64,000 bases of DNA from Candidatus Latescibacterota bacterium (GTDB lineage: Bacteria > Latescibacterota > UBA2968 > GCA-2709665), in NCBI GenBank assembly GCA_965208835.1, contig OZ242358.1:544001-608000 (forward strand), written 5' to 3'. Both the position numbers and the translations under genes were made by a program. Below the pieces are notes generated by a model, which did not search any database, was not told the origin of the DNA, and saw only the letters and a program-made list of their open reading frames with translations. Shown here one piece after another: positions 1 to 59,492 of the stretch; within the stretch, counting starts at the first letter, position 1, and each line of letters begins with the position of its first letter.

Positions 1-1569
1 TCCGACCCCGAGGGGTACGAACCGGGGACTGGCGCCGCCATGAAGAACCTGGATCCATTCCGGCACTTCGACCGCTACCGTCTGGCGCTGGAAAGCATGG
101 TCCGCATGCTGGACCCGAACCTGCAGGAACCGGTTATCGGAGACTCCAGGGAAGGGCGGAGCATCGAACCCGTCTACGCCGAGACTCTCGCCGCCCATTA
201 CGGCAGCCGCTACGCCGGTCTGGTGGAAGACTCACAGGGGGCGCCGTTGGCGGAGAAAGGGGAGGAATACGCCCTCTGGCATCGGGACCCCGATCTGAGA
301 GCGGACGACGAGACCGGCCTGCCGCACCGTACGGAATGGTTTCCCGGCTGGCACGTTGGCGTTCTGCGAGCGGGAAATCCGCGGGGGCATACCGCTTTTT
401 ATCTGAACGGCTACGCGTACGGCGGCCATCGCCACCGGGATACCCTGGGCATCATCTATATCGCCCATGGCCGGGAGATGGCGGCCGACAGGGGATATAT
501 CTGGGACGACCCCAGAAACGCGTGGACCGGCAGCACGCTTGCTCACAACATCGTCACCGTGGACGGCCGTAGTCAGGCCGGCGACAACAAGCCCGCCGCG
601 CTGGAACTGTTCGGAACGGGCGCAGGCGTTGAAGTCGTGCAGGCGTCCGCCGCACCATACGAACAGTGCGATCTGTACCGGCGCACCTGCGTGCTGGTCC
701 AGGTCCCCGGTGATCAGACCTATGTCGTCGACCTGTTCCGGACCGCAGGGGGCGCCCTTCACCAGTACGGCTTTCACAGCAACGGCCGCCTCACGGGTAT
801 TTTCGGCGCCGCCCCGGAACCCGACGACGATCAAATCGAATGGCTGTCCAATATCCGCGCGGCCCAACCCCGGGGTCCGTTCACCGCAACCTGGGACAAC
901 AACGGCGTGGGAATTGAACTCACCCTGCTCAACCCCGTCCATCGCCTGCTGCTCGTGGACGCGCCGGGCTGGCGCTCGGACCTGGGGGAGGAACTCAACG
1001 CCCCGCCCGTGCAGCAGGTCCTGGCGGAACGCCGCGGCGATACAGACCTGAAGAGCGGATTTGCCGCGGTCATTTCACCATACACGGATCGTTCGCCCGT
1101 CCTCTCGTCCAGACTCGTGCTGGACGATGCGGACACGGGCGCGATGGCGGTCGCCGTCTGTCGTCAGGGATGTACGGACTACGTCTACTCCGCGCCGGAC
1201 GGCGGCGTCCACGACATCGGTCCGCTGTCCGTATCGGGCCGGTTCGCCTTTGCGTCCGTCGATGACGACGGCCGTCTGCTGCGCGCGTGTCTGCTTTGCG
1301 GCACCGAACTCCGCTGCAACGGGCACGCGCTGACCATCGACCGGGCGGCGGTCTCCCTGGATGTCGCCCGCGTCACCGATCGTACCTACCACCTGCGGAA
1401 CGCCGTCACCGATCCCGATACCCTTCCGGGCACCAATCTTCTGTGCGGCGATACCGGGTACGAAATCGAGGACGCCACCGAAGAATCCATCACGGTTCGG
1501 GATTACCCCGCCACAGAATGCGACACCGTCACGTTGCTGAAGTGCGTGGTGTACACATGTGACGACTGA
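1..1569 (+). CDS. Heparinase II/III-like (polysaccharide lyase family) protein, 5' end outside window
   Basis: Frame open from base 1 (SDPEGYEPGTGAAM...). Motifs GGHRHRDTLG, ADRGY, TLAHNIVTVDG, YRRTCVLV are typical of the heparinase II/III C-terminal domain. Paralog of 3712-6768. Confidence 0.7.
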   Translation, partial: SDPEGYEPGTGAAMKNLDPFRHFDRYRLALESMVRMLDPNLQEPVIGDSREGRSIEPVYAETLAAHYGSRYAGLVEDSQGAPLAEKGEEYALWHRDPDLRADDETGLPHRTEWFPGWHVGVLRAGNPRGHTAFYLNGYAYGGHRHRDTLGIIYIAHGREMAADRGYIWDDPRNAWTGSTLAHNIVTVDGRSQAGDNKPAALELFGTGAGVEVVQASAAPYEQCDLYRRTCVLVQVPGDQTYVVDLFRTAGGALHQYGFHSNGRLTGIFGAAPEPDDDQIEWLSNIRAAQPRGPFTATWDNNGVGIELTLLNPVHRLLLVDAPGWRSDLGEELNAPPVQQVLAERRGDTDLKSGFAAVISPYTDRSPVLSSRLVLDDADTGAMAVAVCRQGCTDYVYSAPDGGVHDIGPLSVSGRFAFASVDDDGRLLRACLLCGTELRCNGHALTIDRAAVSLDVARVTDRTYHLRNAVTDPDTLPGTNLLCGDTGYEIEDATEESITVRDYPATECDTVTLLKCVVYTCDD

Positions 1570-1613
1570 CGTCAGCGCGGTGACCTCTCTCCCTGGCTCC
1601 TCAGAAGTGGCGA

Positions 1614-1735
1614 GAGGTGAGACGGGAGAGGGGAGAGATAACCTGCCTTGTAAGGTCTCTACTCGTGCCGGAGGCAAGAAGGAAGAAAATACCCGGCAAG
1701 GGCTTCTTCTACCGTCTACCCTCTTACCTCTACCC
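1614..1735. repeat. ~125-bp intergenic repeat (family D, copy 1) with purine-rich and pyrimidine-rich arms
   Basis: Aligns with 19363-19493: GGTGAGACGG..AGAGAT.ACC.GCCT..TGCCGGAGGCA..GAAGAAAAT..CGGCAA..TCTTCT.CCGTCT.CCCTCT..TCTACCC. Confidence 0.7.
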
Positions 1736-1739
1736 GCCT

Positions 1740-2591
1740 TTATTGCAGATTCACAAAACCCGATAACGCCCGCTTCTGTCCGGCCATGTCCAGAATCCTG
1801 CGGATGATCAGGCTCTCCTTCCTGTCGATGCCGGGTTCTCCGGATTCGAACAGGTCCAGCACGGCATCCGCGGTATTCAGAAAGATGCGGCCGGAGTCGA
1901 CCTGGAAGTACCGCGTCGCTTTGGCGGTGGTCACCGAAGCGGCAAAGGGTGTACTCGACCCGGCATATACGTTCACCACCGCGGTACGTCCTCCCGTGTA
2001 ATCCAGCAGCAGTTGTGACTGTCTTCCCGACCCCCGGCGCATGACCCGGCGCACGCCCGGTCCCAAACAGCTGACGGCCAGTTCAAGGGGATGGATCGCG
2101 TATTCTCCGAATGACCTGCCGCCGCCCCAGGTGACCATGTGCCGGACCTGGCTGTGCCCGACGGCTTCCACGTAGCCCTGCACTTCGGTATAGCGCAGCG
2201 CTGAGCTTGTCTGCATGGGCACCCGATGCCTGTCGGCGAGCGCGAAGATCCGTCTGGCCGTGCGCAGGTCCGGGGCAAAGGTTTTGTCCACGTACGTGGG
2301 TTTTCCGAAAAGAAATACCTGTTCGCACAGCTCGAGGTGCGTCTCCGGGGTGGAAGGCGCCAGTACCATGAAACAGTCCACCGCCTCGTTCAACCCGTCC
2401 GCGTTGGAGAACCAGGCAACGCCGTTCGCCTCGGCCCACTTCCTGCCGACTCTCGGACGCAACCCCGTGCACCCCGCCACCACGAAACCCCTATGCTTCA
2501 GTTCGTTCCGGAGCAGTTTCAGGTAGACGTTGGCGTGGAAGTTCTCCAGATTGTCATCCACAAACCCGATCCGTTTCTCTCCACCTGTCAT
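1740..2591 (-). CDS. Gfo/Idh/MocA-family oxidoreductase (NAD-binding N-terminal domain)
   Basis: KRIGFVDD N-terminal strand, VDCFMVLAP..H, YVDKTFA, SSALRY motifs. Start taken at ATG 2591 (MTGGEKRIG). Confidence 0.75.
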   Translation of the reverse strand: MTGGEKRIGFVDDNLENFHANVYLKLLRNELKHRGFVVAGCTGLRPRVGRKWAEANGVAWFSNADGLNEAVDCFMVLAPSTPETHLELCEQVFLFGKPTYVDKTFAPDLRTARRIFALADRHRVPMQTSSALRYTEVQGYVEAVGHSQVRHMVTWGGGRSFGEYAIHPLELAVSCLGPGVRRVMRRGSGRQSQLLLDYTGGRTAVVNVYAGSSTPFAASVTTAKATRYFQVDSGRIFLNTADAVLDLFESGEPGIDRKESLIIRRILDMAGQKRALSGFVNLQ

Positions 2592-2607
2592 TCTTCCGAC
2601 CTCCCGT

Positions 2608-3642
2608 CTACGGCCACTCGGGCGCATCCGCAACGCGCACGATGCCGCCGTTCTCGATGGACTGGTGCCAGGCGTCCAGCACGGCCGTGGCGCGCCACCC
2701 GTCCAGCGCCGTCACAAAGGGCGCGCGATCCTCGATGACGGCGTCGACAAAGCTGTTCACGCACGACGGAAACGCCCCTACCCACTTGTCGAACACCCGG
2801 TAGTTCAGCAACGACCGCGGCCACTTGAATTTCTCCTCCGTACTCATTTCGATCGCCTCGGCCTTCCGGTCCAGATTAACGTGGCCCCTCTCTCCGATCA
2901 CCTGCATGAAGGAATCCGGCATCGACGGATGGGTATTGGGGTAGATCCAGGCCGACTCGAACGTGGCGACGGACCCGCCGTCGAACTTCACGAGCCCCTG
3001 CATCATGTCGTACGCATCGATTCCCCTGGCCGCCAGCACCTCTTTGATCCCGTAGCCGTGGACCTCGACGGGACTCTGATCGAACCACCAGCATATCAGG
3101 TCGATATCGTGCGCCGACAGGAACCAGGCCGGCGAAGACTTCGCGGACCATGGCAACATCTCGGTCGGCACGGATATGGGGTTGTTCTTGCGCGCGTAGC
3201 CCATCAGCGGCCTGCCGATTTCCCCGTCACGGATCATGTTCCACGTGGCATTGTACGGCGCCAGCCACCGGTGATTGTACGAGACTTGTAGCTTCAGTCC
3301 TGTGCGTTTCACGGCATCCACGATCTCGGTGGCTTCTTCGAGGTCGGTTGTCATCGGCTTCTCGACGTGTACGTGACAACCCGCCTCCAGGCATGCGATG
3401 ACCGGGTCCCGGTGCGCCCAGTCAGGCGTGGCGATATAGACGATGTCCAGCGTCTCATTCTCCAGCATCTCGTGATAGTTCCCATACCCGGCGGAAACCG
3501 AAAACTCGTCCTGCGCCCTGCCCAGCTTTTCCGCGTCCAGCGTACAGAATGCCGCCAGCTCAACCAGCGGGTTCCGGTGCAGGACCTGCGTCACGCTGTT
3601 GCCCATAATGCCAAGGCCGATCACACCTGCGCGCTGCTTCAT
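2608..3642 (-). CDS. Gfo/Idh/MocA-family oxidoreductase
   Basis: GVIGLGIMG Rossmann motif, IATPDWAH, HVEKPM, AHDIDL. Confidence 0.9.
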   Translation of the reverse strand: MKQRAGVIGLGIMGNSVTQVLHRNPLVELAAFCTLDAEKLGRAQDEFSVSAGYGNYHEMLENETLDIVYIATPDWAHRDPVIACLEAGCHVHVEKPMTTDLEEATEIVDAVKRTGLKLQVSYNHRWLAPYNATWNMIRDGEIGRPLMGYARKNNPISVPTEMLPWSAKSSPAWFLSAHDIDLICWWFDQSPVEVHGYGIKEVLAARGIDAYDMMQGLVKFDGGSVATFESAWIYPNTHPSMPDSFMQVIGERGHVNLDRKAEAIEMSTEEKFKWPRSLLNYRVFDKWVGAFPSCVNSFVDAVIEDRAPFVTALDGWRATAVLDAWHQSIENGGIVRVADAPEWP

Positions 3643-3711
3643 ATGCTTCCCTCCTTAACTCTCAATCCTGTCCATCCAGGTTTACCCCGGTTCCCTAATT
3701 GAACGAGCTGA

Positions 3712-6700
3712 TCAAAACGCCTCAAATACCATCGGCCGTACCACACACGCGTCCCCCGGACCCAGATCGTAGATCAACGGCAGGTCGTCCGGCGCGCCGG
3801 GCCACGGAATCGGATCGCGCAGCACGAACCTGTGCCCGCCTTCCTCGCGCGGTATCACCCGCTCGATGGTGTGGAGCCGTTCTTTATAGGCCAGTCGTGC
3901 GCCTTTCAGGTAGTGGCATCCCGAGTCTTCGGTATCCTCCCATTCCCGGTGAATCCACGTCCTGGTGAGCAAGCCGTCCTCCGTCTCCGCTTCCACAACG
4001 AAACGTCCGATGTGCAGTCGCTCCGCGTCCAGCGAACACTGCCATCCGTCGCCCGACGCTTCGACCGACTTGATGGGGAAGTTGCATCCGTGTGGCGGGT
4101 TCGACACCATCAGCGTCTCGCCCGCGGGAGGCGCTTCGCCGGTCTCAGATGTCACCGTCACCCGGCAGTCTTCGGCGTCGATTCCCGCAATTCGTCCTCG
4201 CCACGTGCCGGTACCCTCCACCTCCACGCCATCGGACTTCAACCGCCTTCCCGCCAGGCATGCCCACAAAGGGCGGCCGTTCGCGTCCAGTGTCAACACA
4301 CCGAACCCCCCGTCCAGCTCAAGTCCTTCATCAAAGACCGACACGCCCTCGTCCGCCAGGGCACCGAGCAGATAGCATTTTCCACCCTGCCAGGAAATCT
4401 CGAGTCCGATCGCATCTTCGCCTTTGAGCACGTCCAGGCGCCTGACGCCCGTCAATTGAGGGTGGCTCCGATAGGCTTCGCAGACAACGGCGAACAGGCT
4501 GTTCAGGGCGTCCTGCCGGCGGCCTGCCCGATTTCGCAGGAGGACGTAGTCCAGGTGTTCGGCCGCGCCCGGCTTGTTGGGCGGCCTGCCGTGGGCCGTG
4601 ATGATTTCCTGCGCGACGCCCCCCGGGACGATTATGCGCAGTCCCATCTCCTCATCCCGCCAATCGGCCTGGAACTCGCCCGCCGGCCGCCCGCGCTTCA
4701 CGTCATAAAGGTAGGAAAAGCCGCTTCCCCGGTACGAGTGATAACTGCGTTTGCCGTCTGTCCCCGGCAGCCCCGGCAGGCTGGCGTGCCGTTCCAGTTC
4801 GGGATCGTCGTACAGCTTCCGGAACGGAACCGCCGGCCCCGCCAGCGTGCCGCCCTCCTGCGCTTGAAACGCCACACCCCGGGTTGAAAACGCTCCGTTG
4901 AACCCGTGGAATGAATAGTCGTGCGCCCAGCCGCCCCTGACGTGGAAGAGGTCCACCAGGACCTGCAGGTCGGGCGCCAGTTCCAGCAGCGTCACCCCCC
5001 GGCGATACACGTCCGCATCCAGGTAGGCCCGTGGCGCGGAAAGCTCCACGTGCTGCACGTGCGGGGCGGTCCCGAAGCGTTCCAGCCGGCCCTCGTCGGC
5101 CGTGTCCTGCCTGCTCTCGTTCACCACCACGGTGACGTGGCTGGCGGTATTCTTCTCCCAGGCCGGCGGGTCCGGATGTTCGGCGGCGTGGGTGGGATAG
5201 CCCGTATCGGGCACGACCCGTTTGTTGCCCGCGATGACCTCCAGGTTCAACCGGTCCCGATGCGCGTGGCCGGCGTTGGCGTGCCCGTACTGAAGCACCG
5301 CCGCCAGCTGGTTCTCCGCTCTGCCGCTGCGCAGGATCACAAATCCCGTTCCGCCGAGATTATCGCTCGTTTCCGGCCACTTCGGCAGGTCGCCCGCGGC
5401 ACGCTCCAGTTCGGCTTTAGTCAGCGGTACTTCGAACAGGTCATCGTAACTCCTGAACCCGCTTTCACCGGTCCCGCCCTCGTTCAGAAGCGCGCGTGCG
5501 TACTCCGGCCATCCGTAACCCCGGTAAAATCGCTGAAGCGATGAATTGTCCAGCAATGGATAGGTCACCCCGGAGCCCGTATCCGCGATTGACGGCATCA
5601 TTCCGCCCCAACACGCAAGCCGCCGGGACCAGCTGCCCAGCGAACGCACGTGTTGCCCGGGCAGCCGGCGCTTGCCCAGCCGTTTCAGTACCAGGTCCGT
5701 ATCCAGCATATATCGCGTCCAGCAGCCCGCCGAATAGCCGATCGCCACCTCGAATGAGACCCCGTCACGAAAGAGGAAATTGTCCAGCGCGTGGTCCCAT
5801 CCCTCCACGCCGTACGCCCAGACTTCCGTGGTCGGCCCGCATCCCGTGAATGTCTCAAGTTTCTCGATCGCCCAATCCGTAAATGCGTCGTCGTCGATGA
5901 CCACCAGCGCCTTTACCGCGGAGGCCTGGTGAAGTCCGTAGTTGCCCCGGATCTTTCCCTCCCAGATATCCCGCACCGACTGCCGCACCATGTTGTCTTC
6001 CACGTGCCGGATCAACGCTTCGGGTTCCTTTTTCAGAAATTCATGGATTTCAGTCTCGGACTGCAATGCCGGATACAGATTGTCGTACGCTTCGGCGTAG
6101 AGCCCGATGTTGAACGACTCCTGAACGGCGTAGAGAAAACGCCCTGTATATCCGACCTGATAATTCAGGCCGTACCAGGACTGGGAGGCGTGGTCCATGG
6201 TCGGAAAGAGTGCGGCCATCCTGTCCAGCAGGATCGCGCCCTTCCGGCCGTACCGCGCGTCTCCGGTGATCAGATACGCGCGCCCGAGGTCCTGAAGCGC
6301 CGGGATCAACCGGTGCCAGAGGCTGAAACAGTAATGCGCCACAAACCAGAACCGGGACCGCCCGTCCCCGGGGTCCCATCCCTTCCCGTCGTCCGGGTAA
6401 TCGCCGGTAAGCAGCGTGCGGTCCCCCGTCCGGTAATACGCCATGAAGTCGTTCGAGGGGTACTCCTCGCCGCCCACGGCGCACCTGATTTTCCAGGGAC
6501 GATTGAAAATATCCACCTGCCAGGGGCCGCCCGGCGCCTGAAATACCGCCTCTCTGTGGACCGGACACCCGTCGAAAGACGGCAGGAACCCGCGGTAGAT
6601 GTCCGCCGGGGGCGGCAGATCGCGAACATAGGCGTCATCCAGCTTCGCCCAGACCTCCGCCCTGCCGACAATTTCATCGGCGATCTTCCTCGCGGCCGGA

Positions 6701-48537: not shown

Positions 48538-51500
48538 CTAAACAATCAGCGCGGTGGCTTTTTCCTTGAGCGCGGGCAGGAGTTCGTCCGCCGCTCGTTC
48601 GAGCGCGGCGAATGCCTCATTCACGTCTTCCAGGTCCCCTACGCGCGCCATGTCTTCCAGCCTCAGCGCCGCCTCCACGGTAGAATTGGCTAGAAACACG
48701 GCCGCCGAGCCCTTCAGCGTGTGCGCCGCGCGCCGCAGCAGGGTGCTGTCGCCGTGGCCGATCGCCCGTTTCATTTCTTCAATGTGCCTGGCGTATTCGG
48801 TAACAAAAAGCCCGGCAAGTTCAGCCAGAATCGCCTCGTTGCCGCCAACCTGCTCCAGCGCACCCTGCCAGTCCAGCGTGCCGTCGTTGGCGACGGGTTC
48901 CGCCGGCGGTGCATCGTCCGATGGGACGTTGTTCTCCACGATATCGTAGAGGTCTCCCGCACGGATGGGTTTGGGGAGATAATCGTCCATCCCCTCTTCC
49001 AGACACCGTTCTCTGTCGCCCTGCATCACGTGGGCCGTCATCGCCGCAATTCGAACGTGCTCGCCCGACGACCGTTCGCCTTCCCTGATAATCCGCGTTG
49101 CCTCCAGCCCGTCCATCTCCGGCATCTGGATATCCATGAGGATCAGATCGAACGTCTCGTTCTCCAGCGCAGCGAGTGCTTCCTTGCCGTTGTTGACGGC
49201 CGTAACCTGATGGCCGCGCGGCTCGAGCAGGTCCACAATCACTTTCCGGTTGACCAGGCCGTCCTCGGCCAACAGGACGCGACGCCTGTCGGCGGGCGGT
49301 ACCGGTTCCAGGATTCTCGGGACGTCCACGGTTTCGACAACGCTTACCTCCAGGGCTTCCAGCGCGGCATCGAGCAGATCGGACTGCTTGACCGGCTTCG
49401 TCAGACTTCGGGCAAGCCCCAACGCGTCACATCGCACGGCGTCGTGGGTTCTTCCAGCCGAAGAAAGAATCAGTATCGGTACATCCTTCGCCGCGGGATC
49501 TTCCCGAAGGCGCTCCGCCAGCGCGAATCCGTCCATATCCGGCATCACCGCGTCCAGAAGAAACAGATTAAACGGCTGATTCGCTTTGCCGGCCCTCCGA
49601 AGCGTGTCGAGCGCCGCCGGACCCGAGTCCGCGACCTCGATATCCATGCCCCAGGTTCCCAGCATCTCCTCAAATATGAACCGGTTTGTACGGTTGTTGT
49701 CCACCACCAGCGCGCGAAGGCCCACCAGGGTCTGCAGGTCGGCCGCGGACCGTTTCGCCAACGGGGGTTGCGCCTCGAAGACTGCCGTAAAATAAAACGA
49801 ACTCCCCTTGTCCGGTTCGCTTTCCACCCACATCCGTCCGCCCATCATCGCGGCGAGCTGCGATGAAATCGCCAGGCCCAGCCCCGTGCCGCCGAACCTC
49901 CTTGAAGTGGAAGAGTCGACCTGGCTGAACGAGTCGAAAATCAATCGCTGATCTTCGGGCGCGATGCCGATGCCCGTGTCGCGCACAAAAAACCTCAGAC
50001 TGACGGTGTCTTCCTCACGGGCGTCCACTTTCACATCGACCAGCACGTCGCCGTTCGCGGTAAACTTGATGGCATTGTCCACCAGGTTGATCACGATCTG
50101 CCTAAGACGGCCGGGGTCGCCGACGAGCCGGTCCGGAACGTCGGGTGCGATATGGCACGCCAACTCCAGTCCCTTTTGCGTTGCTTTGACCGCGAGCGTC
50201 TGCACGGTATCCCCAAGCGTATCCCGGAGGTCGAAGCCGATCGACTCCAGATCCAGCCGGTTCACCTCCAGCTTGGAAAAATCGAGGATATCGTTCAGCA
50301 GCGCCAGCAGCGCCTCGGAAGACTGCCTCGTCAACTTGAGATACTCGCGCTGCTGGGGCGTCAGGTCCGTGTTGCCCAGCAACTCCGTCATCCCCATGAT
50401 GCCGTTCATCGGCGTGCGGATCTCGTGGCTCATATTGGCCAGAAATTCGCTTTTTGCGCGATTCGCCTTCTCCGCGGTGTCTTTTGCCGTCTGCAGCTCC
50501 GCGCCCGAACGCTCCAGGGCGACGGTGCTCGTCTTCAGCGCTTCGTTGGCTTCGCGCTCGGCGGCTGCCGTATTCTCGAGTTGCCGGTTCTTTTCCTGAA
50601 GCTGAATCTCAGCGCGCTTGCGCAGCGTGATATCCCGAACCGTGCCGATCATATGTACGGACTGCCCCGCCCTGTCGCCGAAAATGCGGCCCTTGTTGCC
50701 GAGCCATCGAATCTTCCCGTTCGGCCAGACCACCCGGTGCTCCACTTCAAAGCCCACCCCTTCCTTGATCGTGCGCCGCACCGAGCCGCGGACCATCTCC
50801 CGGTCTTCGGGATGCACGAGTTCGTAGAACGCCTCGCGCGTGCCTTCGAATTCCTCCGGTTTCAGGCCGAACAGCGGCGCTACCAGGTCCGACCATACGA
50901 GTTCTCCGGTGAGCAGATTGGAGTCCCAACTGCCCATATGGGCGGCTTCCATTGCCAGCTTCAGACGGGCTTCACTTTCCCGCAACGCCTCCTCCGAACG
51001 CTTCCGTTCGGAGTCCAGATAAGCGAGCGAGCGGGCGTACCACCAGATCAGGATATTCAGTGCGACGATCACCCCCAGAGAGAACAGCGACATCCCAGAC
51101 TCGAACCCCAATATCACTTCTCCATGAGGCCAGAGCCAGCCCAGCGCCAGTGGAATCAGGAAAGCGGCAGGCAACAGCCGGCGCGCCATTGACCCTCCGG
51201 CCGTCGAACTGACGATTGTGGTGGTCGGTTCAAGGTCTGGCCGGGACAGAAACACACCGATGCACAACAGCCCGAAAGTGAGCGTTGTTACGGCGCTCAT
51301 CTGGAGATCCCAGGTCACTTCTCTCGGGGAAAGCGCCAGGTAAAAGTGTCCGACCGCATAACCGCACGATACGATCGATGCAATAGACAGACACGTCTGC
51401 GCCGGCCAGGCGTTCCCGCGCACCCTGAAATGCCAGAGAAACAGCGCCAGGCCGATCAGCGCGAAGTTACACGCTTCATTGCGCAGCATATGCCCGGCAC

Positions 51501-51810
51501 CCGCGCCGAAACCGATAAACACGGGTCCCGCGCCAATCAGCTCCAGAATCCCGAAGACCACGACGACCGCGGCGATTGCCTTCCCCAGGAACTGCCTGCG
51601 CGCGGAAGACCCGCCGCTACGCAGCAGCCACAGCGCCACGCCGGTGAGTACGAACATGCCAGCCGTCAACAAAGACATCCATTCGGCCACGGGCGCGCTG
51701 ACCAGCCATCCGGAGAATACCAGGATGGACAGCATGACGACGATCAGATTGGCGGTCTGCGCGGCAATCGCGGCGATTCGCACCAGACGCGGGTCTGCGT
51801 AATCGTCCAT
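48538..51810 (-). CDS. Hybrid sensor histidine kinase (TM-PAS-HisKA-HATPase-REC-REC-Hpt)
   Basis: FLANMSHEIRTPMN, NLVDNAIKFT, DTGIGI, GGTGLGL, two REC domains (LLDAVMP, LMDIQMP), Hpt AAHTLKGS. Confidence 0.95.
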   Translation of the reverse strand: MDDYADPRLVRIAAIAAQTANLIVVMLSILVFSGWLVSAPVAEWMSLLTAGMFVLTGVALWLLRSGGSSARRQFLGKAIAAVVVVFGILELIGAGPVFIGFGAGAGHMLRNEACNFALIGLALFLWHFRVRGNAWPAQTCLSIASIVSCGYAVGHFYLALSPREVTWDLQMSAVTTLTFGLLCIGVFLSRPDLEPTTTIVSSTAGGSMARRLLPAAFLIPLALGWLWPHGEVILGFESGMSLFSLGVIVALNILIWWYARSLAYLDSERKRSEEALRESEARLKLAMEAAHMGSWDSNLLTGELVWSDLVAPLFGLKPEEFEGTREAFYELVHPEDREMVRGSVRRTIKEGVGFEVEHRVVWPNGKIRWLGNKGRIFGDRAGQSVHMIGTVRDITLRKRAEIQLQEKNRQLENTAAAEREANEALKTSTVALERSGAELQTAKDTAEKANRAKSEFLANMSHEIRTPMNGIMGMTELLGNTDLTPQQREYLKLTRQSSEALLALLNDILDFSKLEVNRLDLESIGFDLRDTLGDTVQTLAVKATQKGLELACHIAPDVPDRLVGDPGRLRQIVINLVDNAIKFTANGDVLVDVKVDAREEDTVSLRFFVRDTGIGIAPEDQRLIFDSFSQVDSSTSRRFGGTGLGLAISSQLAAMMGGRMWVESEPDKGSSFYFTAVFEAQPPLAKRSAADLQTLVGLRALVVDNNRTNRFIFEEMLGTWGMDIEVADSGPAALDTLRRAGKANQPFNLFLLDAVMPDMDGFALAERLREDPAAKDVPILILSSAGRTHDAVRCDALGLARSLTKPVKQSDLLDAALEALEVSVVETVDVPRILEPVPPADRRRVLLAEDGLVNRKVIVDLLEPRGHQVTAVNNGKEALAALENETFDLILMDIQMPEMDGLEATRIIREGERSSGEHVRIAAMTAHVMQGDRERCLEEGMDDYLPKPIRAGDLYDIVENNVPSDDAPPAEPVANDGTLDWQGALEQVGGNEAILAELAGLFVTEYARHIEEMKRAIGHGDSTLLRRAAHTLKGSAAVFLANSTVEAALRLEDMARVGDLEDVNEAFAALERAADELLPALKEKATALIV

Positions 51811-51879
51811 TTCAGTGCTTCCTGTCGTTTTGTCCCGGAGACAGTTCGTCGAATGGGAACAAATCCAGGGGACGGGACA

Positions 51880-53529
51880 CTACGGAAACAATCCTCTCAG
51901 GAGTTTCGCCTGGGTCACGCGGTGTATTCCTTCTATCAGCGCTGCGGTGCGTAGATCCAATCCATCGCGTTCGGACCGTTGAGTGGTCCGCTGGAACGCG
52001 TTGAGCAGAATCTGCCTGAGTCGATCGTTGATCTCCTCCAGCGTCCACATATAATTCTGCGTGTCCTGTACCCACTCGAAATAGGAAACCGTAACCCCTC
52101 CGGCATTGCCGAGTACATCAGGCAGAATGAACACGCCTCTTTCCTGCAGGATCTCATCCGCTTCCAGGGTTGTGGGTCCATTGGCGCCCTCGGCCAGGAT
52201 TCTGCACGAGATCCTCTCCGCGTTGTCGGCGCTGATCTGATTCTGTATCGCGGCGGGAACGAGTACGTCGCAGGGCAATTCCAGCAATTCCCGGTTGCTC
52301 ACGGCGTCCCCGCCCTTATATCCTTCCAGAACCCGGTTATCATCCACGTGACGCAGCAGCGAATCCACGCTCAGACCATCGGGATTGTAAATGCCGGTGG
52401 TCACGTCGCTTACGCCCACAACCCGGACGCCGCAGGCCTCGAGGAATCTCGCCGCGCTGCTTCCCACGTTTCCGAATCCCTGGACGACGGCGGTCGCGCC
52501 GCTCAAATCCATACCAAGATGTCTGGCCGCTTCTTCAACCAGATACACCAACCCCCGTCCCGTCGCTTCGCGGCGGCCTTCGGAGCCGCCAAGCACAACC
52601 GGCTTGCCGGTCACGACCGCGGGCACTGTATGACCCATCTGATGGCTGTACGTGTCCATCATCCACGCCATCACGTTTTCGTCCGTGCCCATGTCCGGCG
52701 CGGGGATGTCCTTCTGCGGTCCGATAACGTCGATGATCTCAGACGTATACCGGCGCGTCAGGCGCTGCAGTTCGCGACGGGAGAGCACGGTTGGATCAAT
52801 GCGCACGCCGCCCTTGGCGCCGCCGAACGGGAGGTCCATCAGGGCGCACTTCCAGGTCATCCACATGGCCAGGGCGGTAACCTCGCCCAGGTTCACGTCG
52901 TGATGGTAGCGGACGCCGCCTTTCGTGGGCCCCATCGTCAACAGATGTTGAATCCGATAGCCGGCAACCGTCTCCACGTATCTGTGCTCGTCCCGCCGGA
53001 ACGGAAAGGTGACCACGTGGGTGCGCTGTGGAAACAGCAGCCGCTGCCGGATGTTATCGTCCAGCCCCATCAGGTGGGCGGCCTTCAGGAACTGCTGCTG
53101 TGCCAGGCGGAACATCGGCGATTCCCACTCGGCGTGCTGCGCCCGGCTGCGTTCCACGGCGTATCGGATCGACCTCACCAGAAGCGGGCTGTCCAGCTGG
53201 GATTTTACCAGATAGTCCTGCGCTCCCGCCTCAACCGCCCGTGCGGCCAGTTTGATGTCCTCCACGCCGGAGAGGATGACAACGGTCAGGTCCGGATACG
53301 CGGCGCGCACACGCAGGTATGTTTCGAGTTCCTCGCTGTCCGGCAGTACCAGGTCCAGCAGCAACAATTCGTATCCGTCCGCCGCAAGCCGATTGAGCCC
53401 TTCCGCGAGCGTACCCGCCGAATCCACCTCGAATTCGGGGCCCTCGGATTTGGCAAGCAGTTCCTGAATCAGACGGCTGTGAAGCGGATTGTCCTCAATC
53501 AACAGCGTTTTCAGCTGTGTGCCTGGCAT
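51880..53529 (-). CDS. Response-regulator receiver domain fused to Glu/Leu/Phe/Val (glutamate) dehydrogenase
   Basis: REC: LLIEDN, LLLLDLVLPD, ILSG, DYLVK. GDH: GPTKGGVRY, MTWKCA, GGAKGG, DIPAPDMGT, VQGFGNVG, EGANGP, NAGGVTVSYFEWVQ. Confidence 0.92.
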   Translation of the reverse strand: MPGTQLKTLLIEDNPLHSRLIQELLAKSEGPEFEVDSAGTLAEGLNRLAADGYELLLLDLVLPDSEELETYLRVRAAYPDLTVVILSGVEDIKLAARAVEAGAQDYLVKSQLDSPLLVRSIRYAVERSRAQHAEWESPMFRLAQQQFLKAAHLMGLDDNIRQRLLFPQRTHVVTFPFRRDEHRYVETVAGYRIQHLLTMGPTKGGVRYHHDVNLGEVTALAMWMTWKCALMDLPFGGAKGGVRIDPTVLSRRELQRLTRRYTSEIIDVIGPQKDIPAPDMGTDENVMAWMMDTYSHQMGHTVPAVVTGKPVVLGGSEGRREATGRGLVYLVEEAARHLGMDLSGATAVVQGFGNVGSSAARFLEACGVRVVGVSDVTTGIYNPDGLSVDSLLRHVDDNRVLEGYKGGDAVSNRELLELPCDVLVPAAIQNQISADNAERISCRILAEGANGPTTLEADEILQERGVFILPDVLGNAGGVTVSYFEWVQDTQNYMWTLEEINDRLRQILLNAFQRTTQRSERDGLDLRTAALIEGIHRVTQAKLLRGLFP

Positions 53530-53728
53530 AGTCCCATCGTCTGCGACTGGCGCGATTCAAGATGTGAGGGTGTACATCGGATATTTAGTCCTATTGCCGA
53601 TACGAGTCAAGTCCAACGCGCTGCAAGAGGCGCATTTATGCGATTTGTTGCGGTATTTCCCGTCGAAACGGCAAGGGATGTTTCAATGCCCTCCTTGATT
53701 TCATCACGAAACCGATCCCAAGGATTTA

Positions 53729-53890
53729 GAAGCTGTCTTAAGATTCCCAGCGGTCTTCGCGCGGCTGCAAAAGCGCCGGTCGGCGTTGGTCAAACCCACC
53801 CGTATAGACAAATAGGGGCGGGTTTTCCCGCCTTGACCGCTACTTTTTCGCTCGCGCTCGGGAACTCACCGGAAATTTTAAGACAACTTC
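53729..53890. mobile_element. 162-bp MITE family B, copy 2 (3-bp TTA target duplication)
   Basis: IRs GAAGCTGTCTTAAGATT / AATTTTAAGACAACTTC; TTA at 53726-53728 and 53891-53893. Confidence 0.88.
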
Positions 53891-53928
53891 TTAGACGAAT
53901 AGACCGGTTTCGGGTTGCACGTTATCCT

Positions 53929-54900
53929 TCACCGGCGCTCGCTCCTCAGGTCAAGCCAGTCCAGCTCATCCGGCGTCAGCCGGATTTCCATCGCCTCACG
54001 GTTCAGGCGGCTTTCCTCGACCGACCTGCAGCCCGACACGGTAAAGACGTTCTGGGGCTGGTTGAAGAGGTACGCCAGCGCGATCTGCGCCACGGTCTTT
54101 CCGCGATCGCCGGCAAGTTCCGTCGCGCGTTCCAGCCGGTTGAAGTTCTCTTCGTACCCGTAAACCTGCGCGCAGCCAACCGTCAGTGTATTTGCCGTCT
54201 GGTTGATGTTCTCGCGCGTCAGGAGACCGGAGAAGAATCCCTGCGCCAGGCTGGACCAGGAAAACACAGGCATCTGCGACTCCCGGTACCAGGCTCGTTC
54301 CCCGGCTGCGCGGGGGCCGGAGATACTCAGGCAGCCCTCCCAGATCTCATTCATCCGCACGGCCAGACTGAAATTCGGACTGCTGGCCACAAACGGCCTC
54401 AGGCCGCGTTTCTCCGCATACAGGTTTGCTTCCCGGATTCGATTCACCGTCCAGTTGGACCCGCCGAACGCGCGGATGCGCCCTTCGGACATGTGCTCGT
54501 TCAGTGCCTCCACGAGCGGCCCCACCGGCACCCCCGGATCGTCCCGGTGAAGCAGGTAGAGGTCGATATAATCCGTTCTGAGCCGCGCCAGGGAGTCGAA
54601 GAGGTCCGAAGCGATGTCGAAAACCGTCACCCGGCGGTCCCGGTCCGCATTGGGATGCCCGCCTTTACTCAGAATGAACACATCGCTGCGGTTGTTTCGC
54701 CGGTCCATCCAGGCGCCCAGCGCACGCTCCGACTCTCCGTTTCCATAAACGGGCGCGGTATCGAAACTGTTGCAGCCAAGCGCCCTGATCCCGTCGAGGA
54801 AATCGATGCTCGCCTCGAGATCGTCCGTCGAGACCATCAGCGTACCTTGAACCAGCCTCGAGACCGGTTTGTCAATGCCCTCGACCCGGCCGTATTTCAT
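53929..54900 (-). CDS. Aldo/keto reductase
   Basis: FDTAPVYG, ILSKGGH, DLYLLHRDD, FGGSNW, WSSLAQGF. Confidence 0.92.
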   Translation of the reverse strand: MKYGRVEGIDKPVSRLVQGTLMVSTDDLEASIDFLDGIRALGCNSFDTAPVYGNGESERALGAWMDRRNNRSDVFILSKGGHPNADRDRRVTVFDIASDLFDSLARLRTDYIDLYLLHRDDPGVPVGPLVEALNEHMSEGRIRAFGGSNWTVNRIREANLYAEKRGLRPFVASSPNFSLAVRMNEIWEGCLSISGPRAAGERAWYRESQMPVFSWSSLAQGFFSGLLTRENINQTANTLTVGCAQVYGYEENFNRLERATELAGDRGKTVAQIALAYLFNQPQNVFTVSGCRSVEESRLNREAMEIRLTPDELDWLDLRSERR

Positions 54901-54985
54901 AGGGACTCCATATTAAATATGATATATAGGATATGCTATATATAGTATAAATCGCAGTGTTGAAAGGAAGCTATCAGATAAAGGC

Positions 54986-56487: not shown

Positions 56488-58344
56488 CTACGCGCCCGTG
56501 CCGCGGGATGTTCCGCCATCGCCCGCGGTCAACACGCGGGGCGACAGCGCCTCGAGCCGCGAGAGCGGCTCCTCCAGGCTGCGAATCGCCTGCACCCAGA
56601 AGTCCGACTTTTCGAGGTCGCTGCCGAGGCTGCGTTTCGCCACGTTCTCGGCGGTGTCACTGCCGGTTAACCGAAGGAAGCTTTCATACCGGGGCAGGAA
56701 GTCCGGCCCCTCCTTCCGGAACATGGCATAGAGCCCCCGGCTCAACAGATAGCCGAAGGTGTACGGAAAATTGTAAAACGTGACTCCCGTTATGTAGAAA
56801 TGCAGCTTGGATGCCCAGAACCAGGGGTCTTCTTCCCCCTCCTGAAGCACGTCGCCGAGTACGCCGCGCTGCTTCTCCGTCATCAGCGCCTTCAACTGAG
56901 AAACGCTCAACTCACCGTTGCCGCGTTCCTCGTAAAGCGCCTTTTCAAACTCGAAACGGACCGGAATGTCCAGAAGATAGGTACCCCCGTGGCCCACCTC
57001 CGAATCGAGGACCACCGCTTTCTGCAGGTCGCCCACGTCCGGGTTCGAAAGGACCCCGTCGGCCAGGATCATCTCGGCGAACGTGGAGGCGGACTCCGCC
57101 AGCGTCATCGGGTAATGTCTCGCAAACGGCCGCAGATCGCGCATCACGTGGCTGTGAAACGCGTGGCCCGCCTCGTGCGCGAGCGTCAAGGCGTCGCCCA
57201 TGGTGCGGTTGTACGTCATGAATATCCGTGACTCGGAGATCATCGGGGATCCTGTGCAAAAGCCGCCGGGTCGTTTTCCCGCACGCGGCTCATAGTCAAT
57301 CCATCGCCTGTCGTACATATCCTGCGTAAACCTTCCCAGCGCAGGATAAGCCGTGGCGAACGCACTCTGCACCAGGGATTTCCCCTCATCCCAATCCATG
57401 GGCGACACATCGGGAAAGGGCAGCGGGGCGCCAAGATCGTACCAGGCCACCTTTTCCTGGCCCATCGCCTTCGATCTGAAACGCTGGATACGGCGCCCCA
57501 CATCGATTTCGGAGAATATCGCGTCGAACATCGCGTCCAGCGTCTTCCGCGAAATAGCGGACTGGAACAGGGCCACCTCGAGAAAATGCGGGACCTCGCG
57601 GTAGCGATTCATCGTCAGCCGTGTGCCGGATATCGCGTTCAGCGCGGCCGCCGCTACGTCTTCAACGCTTTCCCATGCCGCGTTGCCCCCCTCGAACGCG
57701 GCCCGCCGTACCCGCCGGTCCGGATTTTCCATCAACGACCGCCGCTGGGAGATGGGCACCTTTTCCTCCCGGCCGTCGGGAAACCGCATATCGAATTCCA
57801 GCTTCCCGGACAGGGTATCGTAAAGCCGGCCCCACGCCGAGATGCCGTCCACCCTCAGGTCGGCTGCGAGCGCCTCGCGCGCCGAGTCCATGGTATAGCG
57901 GGCCTCGCGGCGCATGCGACCCAGGAGATAACCGGCGTCCGAAAGCGACTCCCGGCGTGTGAGCGCCTCGAAGTTGCCGTCGGACGCCGTCTTCAATCCC
58001 CGCAGCAGTTCCGTCTGAAGCTTGGTGGCTTCTGCGTATTGCAGCGTCAACGCGGCCTCTTCCTTCAAATAGGCCTCGTTTCGCGCGTCGGCTGCCGTCA
58101 GGCATCCCACGTAGGAGGCCACGTGTCGCAGACGCGTGAACAGGTCCTCGCTGCGGAGGAGGAGATCCTCCCAGGTCTCGACATTACCCTCGTCCAGCGG
58201 CTCCAGAGCCCTCGCCAACTCCAGCAAATCCCGCGTATCCGTCTCCAGGGCGTTCTTGAACTTCACCATCTCCGGCCCGTTGAACGTCGGGAAGTAGCTT
58301 TTCAGATCCCAGTCCATTCCTGCTTCGGCAACAGTCTCCACCAT
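56488..58344 (-). CDS. pepF: Oligoendopeptidase F (M3B)
   Basis: TLAHEAGHAFH, LAESASTFAE, GKRPGGFC, FYNFPYTFG. Confidence 0.92.
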   Translation of the reverse strand: MVETVAEAGMDWDLKSYFPTFNGPEMVKFKNALETDTRDLLELARALEPLDEGNVETWEDLLLRSEDLFTRLRHVASYVGCLTAADARNEAYLKEEAALTLQYAEATKLQTELLRGLKTASDGNFEALTRRESLSDAGYLLGRMRREARYTMDSAREALAADLRVDGISAWGRLYDTLSGKLEFDMRFPDGREEKVPISQRRSLMENPDRRVRRAAFEGGNAAWESVEDVAAAALNAISGTRLTMNRYREVPHFLEVALFQSAISRKTLDAMFDAIFSEIDVGRRIQRFRSKAMGQEKVAWYDLGAPLPFPDVSPMDWDEGKSLVQSAFATAYPALGRFTQDMYDRRWIDYEPRAGKRPGGFCTGSPMISESRIFMTYNRTMGDALTLAHEAGHAFHSHVMRDLRPFARHYPMTLAESASTFAEMILADGVLSNPDVGDLQKAVVLDSEVGHGGTYLLDIPVRFEFEKALYEERGNGELSVSQLKALMTEKQRGVLGDVLQEGEEDPWFWASKLHFYITGVTFYNFPYTFGYLLSRGLYAMFRKEGPDFLPRYESFLRLTGSDTAENVAKRSLGSDLEKSDFWVQAIRSLEEPLSRLEALSPRVLTAGDGGTSRGTGA

Positions 58345-58355
58345 ACGTTTTTCCC

Positions 58356-59492
58356 TCAAGAAGTAAGTTCCAAACCAAGAATCCTTGCCGTGGTTCCCCC
58401 CATGATCATCCTCTGGTCGTCCGCGCTCAAGAATGCGCAGTATTTCTCAATCCACCGCCTCGACTGCCTGTACGTACAGAACCGGTTCTGAAACGGCATA
58501 TCCGTTCCCCAGTTCAGGTGTTCCGCGCCCACATTGGCGACCATGGCTTCCATCACCGGCCACACCTCACGGTACGGAAAGTCGAACCAGTCTCCGATTC
58601 GGACGGGGAAGCAGACCTCCAGATTGCAGTTCGGGTTCTCGAACGGCAGCCAGATCTCCCCCGGCATCGGCAGGAACTTTCCGTCCGAAACGAATGCGCG
58701 CCAGGGGAAACCGTGCGTCAGATTCACGACGACATCAGGATAGCGTTCCATCCAGCGGACCAGGACCTTCTGTTCGTCCAGGTAGCCCTGACGTGCCCCT
58801 TCGGGCGTCATCCGCCGCCTCACGTCGCCCGGTCCGGATCCCAGCGTAAAGAAAACCGGCACGCCCAGCGACGTCGCCGCATCCCAGAACGGCCGGCAGG
58901 ATGCCGCGTCCCACGGCTCGGTGGCGCCGAGGTACGCCGGCCGCGCGTTGAACTTGATCGCGTGGAGCCCGTGTACCCGTATCGCTGTGTCGAGTTCCTC
59001 GATCACCGCATCCGTCTCGGTACGGATGCGCCACTCGTCAACAGGGGCCATGGACCGGAGCCGGTCCGGGTACTGACGCACGCACTCGGCCAGGAATTCG
59101 CTGTTGCGGGTCAACATCGGGTTCGTGTGGATGAGCGCCATGTCGACGTACGCGTAGTCCATTTCCGCGATCAGGCTGTGCGGCGTAAATTCCAGGTTCC
59201 GCAGGTTCGGTGGATAAAATTGCTTGGTATAGTCCTCCCCGTCGATCGTCCAGACCACCCGCCCCTTCTCTTTGTCCACGCGGAAGTTCGCGTCGGGCAG
59301 GTCGCTCCAGGACTCGTAATCCGTGGGGATCAACCCGTCCGACGTCGCCGGCGCCCGGTCCCGCACGCGCCAGGCCGGCTGGTGGTGGAGGCCCTGGGCC
59401 TCCTGGACCCACTTCAGGTGTTCCTCGCTGTTTTCGAACCCGGCCGGATCGTCACCCGGCTCGAAGCAATAGGCGTGGGAGTCGAAGATCAT
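58356..59492 (-). CDS. Amidohydrolase_2-family protein
   Basis: MIFDSHAY, THG, WGTDMPF, IMGGTTARIL. Confidence 0.82.
   Translation of the reverse strand: MIFDSHAYCFEPGDDPAGFENSEEHLKWVQEAQGLHHQPAWRVRDRAPATSDGLIPTDYESWSDLPDANFRVDKEKGRVVWTIDGEDYTKQFYPPNLRNLEFTPHSLIAEMDYAYVDMALIHTNPMLTRNSEFLAECVRQYPDRLRSMAPVDEWRIRTETDAVIEELDTAIRVHGLHAIKFNARPAYLGATEPWDAASCRPFWDAATSLGVPVFFTLGSGPGDVRRRMTPEGARQGYLDEQKVLVRWMERYPDVVVNLTHGFPWRAFVSDGKFLPMPGEIWLPFENPNCNLEVCFPVRIGDWFDFPYREVWPVMEAMVANVGAEHLNWGTDMPFQNRFCTYRQSRRWIEKYCAFLSADDQRMIMGGTTARILGLELTS

Follow-up and report, generated by a model that had tools for sequence, protein, structure and literature searches.

A stretch of 64,000 nucleotides from the assembly of a Candidatus Latescibacterota bacterium (GCA_965208835.1, contig OZ242358.1, positions 544,001 to 608,000), referred to below as the window, carries a gene in which a receiver (REC) domain is joined to a complete glutamate dehydrogenase (GDH), and beside it lies the gene of a multi-step hybrid sensor histidine kinase. 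Judged by sequence comparison, this REC-GDH cassette is real, conserved and wired to the kinase; the architecture has already been catalogued, and the window copy is typical and intact. The adjacent multi-step kinase most likely switches REC-GDH. One new point is a small sister branch with a canonical receiver and lost GDH catalytic residues, whose members are apparent pseudo-GDH response regulators. GDH is a meeting point of carbon and nitrogen metabolism. The features of the cassette, with the evidence for each in brackets, are the following.

51880..53529, - strand: REC-GDH gene, 549 amino acids (aa), a response regulator with glutamate dehydrogenase output (open reading frame (ORF) list; Pfam; architecture of homologues)
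53125..53529, - strand: REC domain, residues 1-135, phospho-acceptor D59 (PF00072; residue conservation; structure model)
51883..53124, - strand: complete GDH core, residues 136-549 (alignment to 1b3b; Foldseek; key residues)
51811..51879, - strand: intergenic gap of 69 bp (sequence; RNA fold; terminator scan)
48538..51810, - strand: hybrid sensor histidine kinase, 1090 aa (ORF list; Pfam; orthologues adjoining REC-GDH)
51001..51810, - strand: polytopic membrane sensor module, approximately residues 1-270, no family assigned (hydropathy scan)
50638..50901, - strand: PAS_3 domain, kinase residues 304-391 (Pfam, 75.9 bits)
50266..50457, - strand: HisKA domain, kinase residues 452-515, H462 in SHEIRTP (Pfam; orthologue alignment)
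49786..50121, - strand: HATPase_c catalytic domain, kinase residues 564-675 (Pfam, 104.6 bits)
49366..49710, - strand: kinase REC1 with D753 (PF00072 match; alignment of 11 orthologues)
48937..49278, - strand: kinase REC2, canonical, with E849-D850, D893, T925 and K947 (Pfam; orthologue alignment)
48580..48822, - strand: Hpt domain, kinase residues 997-1077, H1030 in AHTLKGS (Pfam)

An earlier inspection of the DNA letters, the sequence-only reading, had described a 549-aa ORF combining REC and GDH that lies 69 bp upstream of a co-directional kinase built as transmembrane (TM)-PAS-HisKA-HATPase-REC-REC-Hpt. Both descriptions were borne out by the ORF list and Pfam, and by a hydropathy scan for the membrane part of the kinase. 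The window was also said to hold no further response regulator, and its three PF00072 matches are indeed the two in the kinase and the one in the fusion; the whole genome has 24 such matches at E<=0.001. The proposal built on this layout, a GDH switched by a phosphorelay, stands as far as the wiring is concerned (synteny, relay residues, a split Hpt and the only Hpt of the genome), whereas direct control of the enzyme's activity is presumed.

The fusion protein and its family

The two parts of the fusion protein are clearly recognized by Pfam, with Response_reg at residues 9-111 (57.4 bits, cut-off 30.2), ELFV_dehydrog_N at 167-296 (176.8 bits) and ELFV_dehydrog at 314-546 (267.8 bits). The canonical receiver residues that had been read from the sequence are all found, namely E12-D13, D59 in LLLDLVLPD, S87 and K109 in DYLVK. 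Over 133 members of the family, E12, D59 and K109 are each kept in 133/133, D13 in 130/133 and T/S87 in 129/133. The nearest solved sequence relatives of the receiver are of the NtrC1 and DctD types: 1zy2 (E 8.7e-10), 1qkk (1e-09) and 1ny5 (6e-09). In the AlphaFold2 model of the fusion (mean predicted local distance difference test score (pLDDT) 82.5, predicted template modelling score (pTM) 0.74), the receiver blocks mostly reach pLDDT 85-93 and display the canonical alternation of strands (6-11, 33-38, 55-59, 82-87 and 105-108) with a helix after each. At the modelled junction, REC alpha5 (114-132) is followed by five residues and then by the first GDH helix, alpha1 (138-154).

The enzyme part is a complete GDH. 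Its residues 136-549 match residues 2-415 of the solved GDH 1b3b over their whole length (E 7.8e-140), and the best Foldseek matches are free-standing GDHs of about 410-420 residues, with a target-normalised template modelling (TM) score of 0.84-0.89. The matches come from Thermotoga maritima, Thermococcus profundus, Thermus thermophilus (GdhB), Bacillus subtilis (RocG/GudB) and plants; no solved chain with a receiver-GDH arrangement is present among them, and no alignment exceeds 432 columns. The GDH motifs that had been claimed were located as TKGG at 202, WKC at 226, GGAKGG at 236, IPAPD at 275 and GFGNVG at 351. K203, K227, K239, D279, G351/G353/G356, N450 and S482 are present and invariant in a 60-sequence alignment; following the GDH literature, the scored residues are taken here to have catalytic, substrate-binding and dinucleotide-binding roles. 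The GDH part is 69-73% identical to two unfused enzymes, those of loci L013 and L015. Because the equivalog cut-offs of NCBIfam are unmet for both GdhB_Halo (NF041398, 500.2 vs 620) and GdhA_Arch (NF040817, 482.3 vs 750), the enzyme can be placed at the family level only. It is probably a hexamer, by analogy with homologues deposited with six chains.

The junction itself offers no fusion-specific linker. Its motif, EW-x2-P-M, is also N-terminal in the closest unfused GDHs (L013, L015, L016 and L017) and is thus a trait of the GDH lineage. A search for clade-specific residues that could form a REC-contact surface returned 18 GDH positions. They were rejected as such a surface and mark the lineage, since most recur in unfused enzymes: L013 and L015 both have 12 of them, and 16 are found in one or both.

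The fusion is a widespread and well-conserved protein. When a collection of 5.8 billion proteins was searched for homologues, 120/120 of the best matches had the REC+ELFV_N+ELFV architecture, at 69-96% identity, 98-100% coverage and lengths of 539-566 aa. The fused form was likewise present in 15/15 genomes of the window's genus (89-100% identity), so that an assembly chimera, the doubt raised with the sequence-only reading, is ruled out. The source names of the fused homologues include members of the Planctomycetes, Latescibacteria, Gemmatimonadota, Oceanospirillaceae and Rhodobacterales as well as Microbulbifer, and REC-GDH is found in the cultured bacteria Gimesia maris, Roseiconus nitratireducens, Halomonas stenophila, Lujinxingia vulgaris and Pontibacterium granulatum. 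For residue scoring, a set of 206 fused sequences was used (the window protein and 205 proteins of at least 470 aa). Complete sets of 9/9 GDH and 5/5 REC key residues occur in 190/206 of them, the window protein included; among the rest, one has 9 GDH and 4 REC residues and seven have 8 and 5.

Outside the window's genus, three genomes from two other genera of its family also have the fusion (76-78% identity); none was found in four genomes from two further genera of the family, nor in the 19 genomes examined from the neighbouring one. Across the phylum, 23/168 genomes and 6/49 genera carry it. Identity remains at 65-71% for fused copies whose records bear the labels of other phyla, a level that points to lateral spread of the cassette.

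A FastTree phylogeny of 186 GDH domains places 48/48 fused rows in a clade of 50 (support 99) together with the unfused L013 and L015, which are nested within the fused clade with a support of 79. Secondary loss of the receiver in these two enzymes was considered and is not shown: in IQ-TREE, the topology in which the fused rows are constrained together is 14.2 log-likelihood units better (approximately unbiased test, p-AU 0.765), so the test does not reject monophyly of the fused forms. The data are compatible with one origin of the fusion. Two further arrangements were noticed. Locus L057 (6995-9278, titled Gaiellaceae) has a 212-aa receiver-like ORF a short way upstream of the gene for a separate 429-aa GDH; this unfused layout may be analogous. 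Other GDH fusions among the representatives (P0138, P0268) combine CTP_transf_1 with GDH (607 aa) and phosphoglycerate kinase with HHH and GDH (1103 aa).

The hybrid kinase and its link to the fusion

The kinase has the parts of a complete phosphorelay. Pfam recognizes PAS_3, HisKA, HATPase_c, two Response_reg stretches (the best at 845-958) and Hpt. The H-box SHEIRTP is identical in 11/11 kinase orthologues, which also all keep the Asp and Lys of REC1 and the acidic pair, D893, T925 and K947 of REC2. The Hpt histidine is kept in 9/9 orthologues having a fused Hpt, and the match in the window kinase is the single PF01627 (Hpt) match of the 5.18-Mb genome. The best NCBIfam matches are BarA (492.4 bits, cut-off 890) and TorS (470.6, cut-off 676.5), and ArcB scores 357.6 (cut-off 838); because every score lies under its equivalog cut-off, the kinase is none of these.

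The input side of the kinase varies from locus to locus. Hydropathy analysis of the window kinase gives five strongly hydrophobic 19-residue segments within residues 23-256 and none beyond them. This membrane module (approximately residues 1-270) matches no Pfam family at E<=10 and nothing in NCBIfam at E<=1; a protein atlas gives unnamed clusters only, with MASE3 at 0.84 as a lead, and the AlphaFold model of the module is poor (pLDDT 63.6). The module is common to the kinases of L002, L004, L082, L083, L164, L166 and L167, at 36-47% identity. An invariant motif, P-x2-E-P-x2-T-x-V-S-x2-A-G-G-x-M-A-R-R-L-L-P-A-x-F-x-I-P, was observed at kinase residues 191-220 (window 51151-51240, - strand) in 8 orthologues. 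The window kinase combines the membrane module with PAS_3, and the kinases of L002 and L004 have only the homologous membrane module. Elsewhere, GAF and PAS (L007), CHASE (L009, L014 and L085) or dCache-HAMP-PAS (L086) take this place, and in L005 the sensor part consists of two extra N-terminal receivers. Such interchangeable inputs on a constant transmitter and output are what is expected of a functional signalling module. Directly upstream of the L005 kinase, at 570-3946, lie a CheB gene and the gene of a CheA-like protein (Hpt-HATPase-CheW-REC), which suggests a chemosensory-type pathway as the input of this kinase.

Synteny was examined in 26 fused loci, comprising the window, 12 from genome contigs, 5 from metagenome contigs and 8 from genomes of the window's phylum. 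The window kinase and, separately, its Hpt part were used as tblastn queries, and neighbouring ORFs were searched with Pfam. Among the metagenome contigs, the kinase search covered the 5 fused of 80 loci, and the 75 unfused ones were left out. The arrangements are as follows.

Orthologous kinase adjacent, co-directional and downstream of the fusion (n=11): window, L002, L004, L007, L014, L082, L083, L164-L167
Orthologous kinase adjacent, co-directional and upstream of the fusion (n=4): L005, L009, L085, L086
REC-Hpt gene only, overlapping the end of the fusion gene (n=1): L162
No kinase within about 3 kb or more on each side (n=4): L010, L011, L168, L169
Contig too short to judge (n=6): L003, L006, L008, L012, L084, L163

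Most fused loci thus adjoin an Hpt-bearing hybrid kinase, the synteny that the sequence-only reading had proposed to look for: an adjacent, co-directional orthologue with HisKA-HATPase-REC-REC-Hpt is present in 15/20 informative loci. When the near-duplicates L004/L082 (98.9% identical) and L166/L167 (96.9%) are collapsed, it is present in 13/18 distinct ones. None of the 68 unfused GDH loci from genome contigs has an Hpt match, and five have weak kinase-like matches only. The relay can also be split. In L009 (6590-6943) and L085 (4588-4941), the Hpt domain is encoded separately, by a gene that has an ATG and a Shine-Dalgarno-like site of its own and that sits between a CHASE-HisKA-HATPase-REC-REC kinase and REC-GDH in a three-gene relay. 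The REC-Hpt protein of L162 (8678-9487) has 269 aa and no kinase core nearby; together with the fusion, it resembles a reduced version of the cassette. Taken together, the gene arrangements make the wiring of the kinase to REC-GDH well supported, and the window kinase is presumably the phosphodonor.

In the subclade of L010-L012, the receiver is degenerate (G/S in place of D13, I in place of T87 and C/S in place of D105; D59 and K109 are retained), and L010 and L011, the loci of this subclade with enough flank, are without an adjacent kinase. Receiver degeneration hence correlates with kinase loss here. Hybrid kinases at 40-49% identity, possible orthologues, are encoded elsewhere in genomes without an adjacent kinase (G154, G155 and G017), those of L168 and L169 included. 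Upstream of the fusion, the kinase-less loci L010 (1149-6843), L011 (1575-6909) and L168 (9310-11319) have a conserved cluster of genes for an amine oxidase, DUF1365, cyclopropane-fatty-acid synthase and DUF1295.

These loci bear on the possibility that the receiver is vestigial, in which case GDH would be constitutive, the kinase would signal to an unlinked response regulator, and the adjacency of the genes would be meaningless. Such a state would agree with the four informative loci without an adjacent kinase, with the 24 receiver matches in the genome, hence other acceptors, and with the closest unfused relatives, L013 and L015, which manage without a receiver. Nevertheless, D59 and K109 never vary in the 133 members, and the acidic pair and T/S87 do so rarely. 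The kinase adjoins the fusion in either gene order and in records that carry the labels of several different phyla, and in two loci, the Hpt is a separate gene placed beside the fusion. Where the receiver has degenerated, the informative loci also have no adjacent kinase, and no unfused GDH locus has such a kinase (0/68). A vestigial receiver is therefore considered highly improbable.

Proposed switch and alternative roles of the enzyme

The account that we regard as probable is that the two genes form a phosphorelay cassette, with an active GDH of the hexamer type, switched by phosphorylation, as the terminal response regulator. In this scheme, H462 would be the site of autophosphorylation in the membrane/PAS kinase, and the phosphate would be passed to the internal receiver residue D893 of REC2, with REC1 possibly modulatory. 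In the Hpt domain, H1030 would receive it from D893 and hand it on to D59 in the REC that is fused to GDH. The resulting change at the alpha4-beta5-alpha5 face would be transmitted mechanically via alpha5 into GDH alpha1. Mechanical transmission is the most likely route because only five residues separate REC alpha5 from the first GDH helix. Subunit packing in the hexamer or closure of the cleft could then be altered, and GDH activity would be switched. We infer, from comparisons at the sequence level, that phosphorylation alters REC-GDH activity and in which manner it does so.

The window genome (5.18 Mb, one contig, 97.8% complete) has one PF00208 match, which is the fusion and hence the sole GDH, and no large GDH of the PF05088 type; glutamate synthase (GOGAT) is present, with three Glu_synthase matches, one of them a 1543-aa frame. 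G168 and G169 likewise have no ELFV-type match besides the fusion, and in G170-G172 it occurs with further ELFV-family matches. Because the fusion is the sole GDH and GOGAT is present, the cassette would give fast, post-translational and signal-dependent control of the glutamate/2-oxoglutarate node.

Several observations weigh against this account. An adjacent kinase is missing from 4/18 distinct informative loci, and two of these, L168 and L169, keep a canonical receiver. Identities of the kinase core only moderately track those of REC (Spearman 0.36) and GDH (0.43), correlations that were reached in 24/2000 and 63/2000 permutations, respectively. The AlphaFold output of the fusion gives no inter-domain contacts, and no REC-contact surface was detected via positions specific to the fused clade. 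The acidic pair of REC1 is D-N in the window kinase and D-D in the other 10 orthologues. Finally, 8/206 fused sequences have 5/5 REC key residues but at most 6/9 of those of GDH (P0122, P0134, P0136, P0215, P0245, P0271, P0272 and P0311). As for the D-N pair, the substitution lies at kinase residue 705 (window 49696-49698, - strand) and may weaken metal binding in REC1.

The receiver might set the amount or the location of the enzyme rather than its activity, by phospho-dependent proteolysis, higher-order sequestration or recruitment to the kinase at the membrane. An intact, kinase-linked receiver would serve this purpose as well, and the computed results are equally compatible with control of activity and of abundance. 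Moreover, the nearer solved sequence relatives of the receiver include 3eq2, which we take to be an RssB-type adaptor. No protease, adaptor or anchoring gene is conserved beside the cassette, however, and the five-residue connection between alpha5 and GDH suggests mechanical coupling, not a freely exposed module. We consider this role improbable.

An exhaustive search of representatives at 50% identity gave more distant fused forms. These (P0122, P0134, P0136, P0215 and P0245) are full-length, lie at 35-54% identity and have REC+ELFV_N+ELFV by Pfam with low GDH scores; their receiver motifs and junction motif are canonical. In these five pseudo-GDHs, K203 is replaced by L, M, F, V or L and K227 by Q or R, the catalytic K239 is kept only in P0122, and P0134 and P0245 are also without the glycine motif of dinucleotide binding. 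P0271 and P0272 are 58-60% identical to P0136 and have the same substitutions, so the three form an evolving lineage and not sequencing noise. None of the 168 genomes from the window's phylum yielded a member of this branch. Since the receiver is intact in all eight while GDH residues are lost, the scaffold can apparently persist without catalysis.

On this basis, the GDH body could be a signalling scaffold or trigger enzyme, that is, a metabolite-sensing or oligomeric platform whose catalysis is not the regulated property. It might integrate the glutamate/2-oxoglutarate/NAD(P)H state with the phosphorelay, either as a metabolite-gated phosphate sink or by binding another protein in a phospho-dependent way. 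In addition to the pseudo-GDHs, with the intact receiver and junction motif and the shared substitutions of P0136, P0271 and P0272, solved GDHs of this class occur in regulatory complexes according to their titles (7mfm, glutamate synthase with GDH; 9a5j, DnaK-GudB). The window protein, however, is among the 190/206 that keep every scored catalytic and substrate residue, and its GDH part is close to the unfused enzymes in sequence (69-73% identity). In G000, G168 and G169, the fusion is the sole GDH, so enzymatic function must come from it there, and no conserved third partner gene is seen in the neighbourhoods. A scaffold role is therefore plausible for some relatives, via the pseudo-GDH branch, and less likely for the window protein, because its enzyme is intact and is the sole GDH; as a general explanation, we hold it to be unlikely. 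A broader idea can be put forward only tentatively. The GDH fold itself might be a phospho-driven signalling device, which in the main family would act as a valve on the sole GDH and in sister branches would serve as a non-enzymatic, phospho-dependent output.

On this tentative view, the main family would be a post-translational carbon-nitrogen valve that acts within seconds and that many lineages have tied to different sensors, and the pseudo-GDH branch would be a trigger enzyme part-way to a pure signalling protein. If the phosphorelay switch is true, a relay ending on the enzyme itself would add control of another kind, and a faster one, than the allostery and partner proteins that are represented among the solved bacterial relatives, and it would govern the sole GDH of the window genome. 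Interchangeable sensors and a pseudo-enzyme branch also make the family an instructive example of the recruitment of metabolic enzymes into signalling and their later repurposing. The family occurs in cultured bacteria; because it is also large and its records carry the labels of several phyla, the hypothesis is open to ordinary biochemistry.

Surroundings of the cassette and known systems

The DNA around the two genes shows signs of an operon. In the 69-bp gap, a Shine-Dalgarno-like AGGAAG lies 7 nt ahead of the kinase ATG; the gap has no stable hairpin (RNA fold z = -0.34), and the terminator scan gave no site there. A terminator-like hairpin is placed on the other side, between the upstream aldo/keto reductase gene and REC-GDH:

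53817..53832, - strand: terminator-like hairpin (terminator scan, suggestive)

Its position is only weakly suggestive of the start of a transcription unit upstream of REC-GDH. The terminator scan gave 7 sites in total vs 5.2 +/- 1.9 in shuffles, and the counts of the promoter/terminator scan were not above shuffles. The other neighbours in the window are genes for HAD hydrolases, a sulfotransferase-like protein, an ArsR-type regulator, a tautomerase, the aldo/keto reductase, a GFO/IDH/MocA oxidoreductase and an M3 peptidase, with no evident link to the cassette. The M3 oligopeptidase gene (56488-58359) is 3 kb from the cassette, and M20-family peptidase genes occur near it in L002 (13713-15113), L004 (13986-15356), L009 (8911-10209) and L162 (5638-7008). 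The recurring peptidases could hint at a link to peptide and amino-acid catabolism or could be coincidence. An open frame of 988 aa (51979-54945, + strand) runs antisense over the REC-GDH and aldo/keto reductase genes and is most likely a high-GC antisense artefact.

The sequence-only reading knew of no characterised example of such a protein, and this part of its claim to novelty is upheld: no experimental study of REC-GDH was found in the full-text literature, a search that did not extend to subscription journals and supplements. The architecture itself is not new. A table of P2CS (2009; PMC2716373) lists EC 1.4.1.3, glutamate dehydrogenase, as a “probable” enzyme output of response regulators. 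That entry belongs to the same architecture class and is a catalogue line only, with no synteny, mechanism or experiment in it. A passage of Galperin et al. (2018; PMC5847659) states that REC domains on standard metabolic enzymes are known in bacteria.

Among known systems, CheB (REC-methylesterase) and PleD/WspR (REC-GGDEF) resemble REC-GDH in having an N-terminal receiver with all its residues joined to an enzyme and fed by a histidine kinase. In L005, a CheB gene of this REC-enzyme layout even stands near the cassette. CheB is activated by relief of active-site occlusion and PleD by dimerisation. Their outputs are signalling enzymes, whereas that of REC-GDH would be an oxidoreductase of central metabolism and, by analogy, a hexamer. 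In NtrC1/DctD, as in the model of REC-GDH, receiver alpha5 leads directly into a ring-type oligomeric output, and receivers of this type control the assembly of that output through alpha5. The likeness is weak and generic (approximately 40 bits), and the output there is an AAA+ ATPase, so this is an analogy and not family membership.

For the kinase, BarA, TorS and ArcB provide the closest comparison, with the same HisKA-HATPase-REC-Hpt order and conserved His, Asp and His. The window kinase differs from them in its two receivers before the Hpt, in its membrane sensor without a family and in the enzyme that is its likely terminal partner. For the output, the same enzyme class is represented by GdhA/GdhB of Thermus thermophilus and RocG/GudB of Bacillus subtilis, whose structures (3aoe/3aog, 3k92/3k8z and 7mfm) are among the top structural matches. 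By the titles of these entries, the enzymes are controlled by leucine allostery (Thermus thermophilus) or by separate partner proteins, while the GDH of the window has a receiver that is covalently fused to it.

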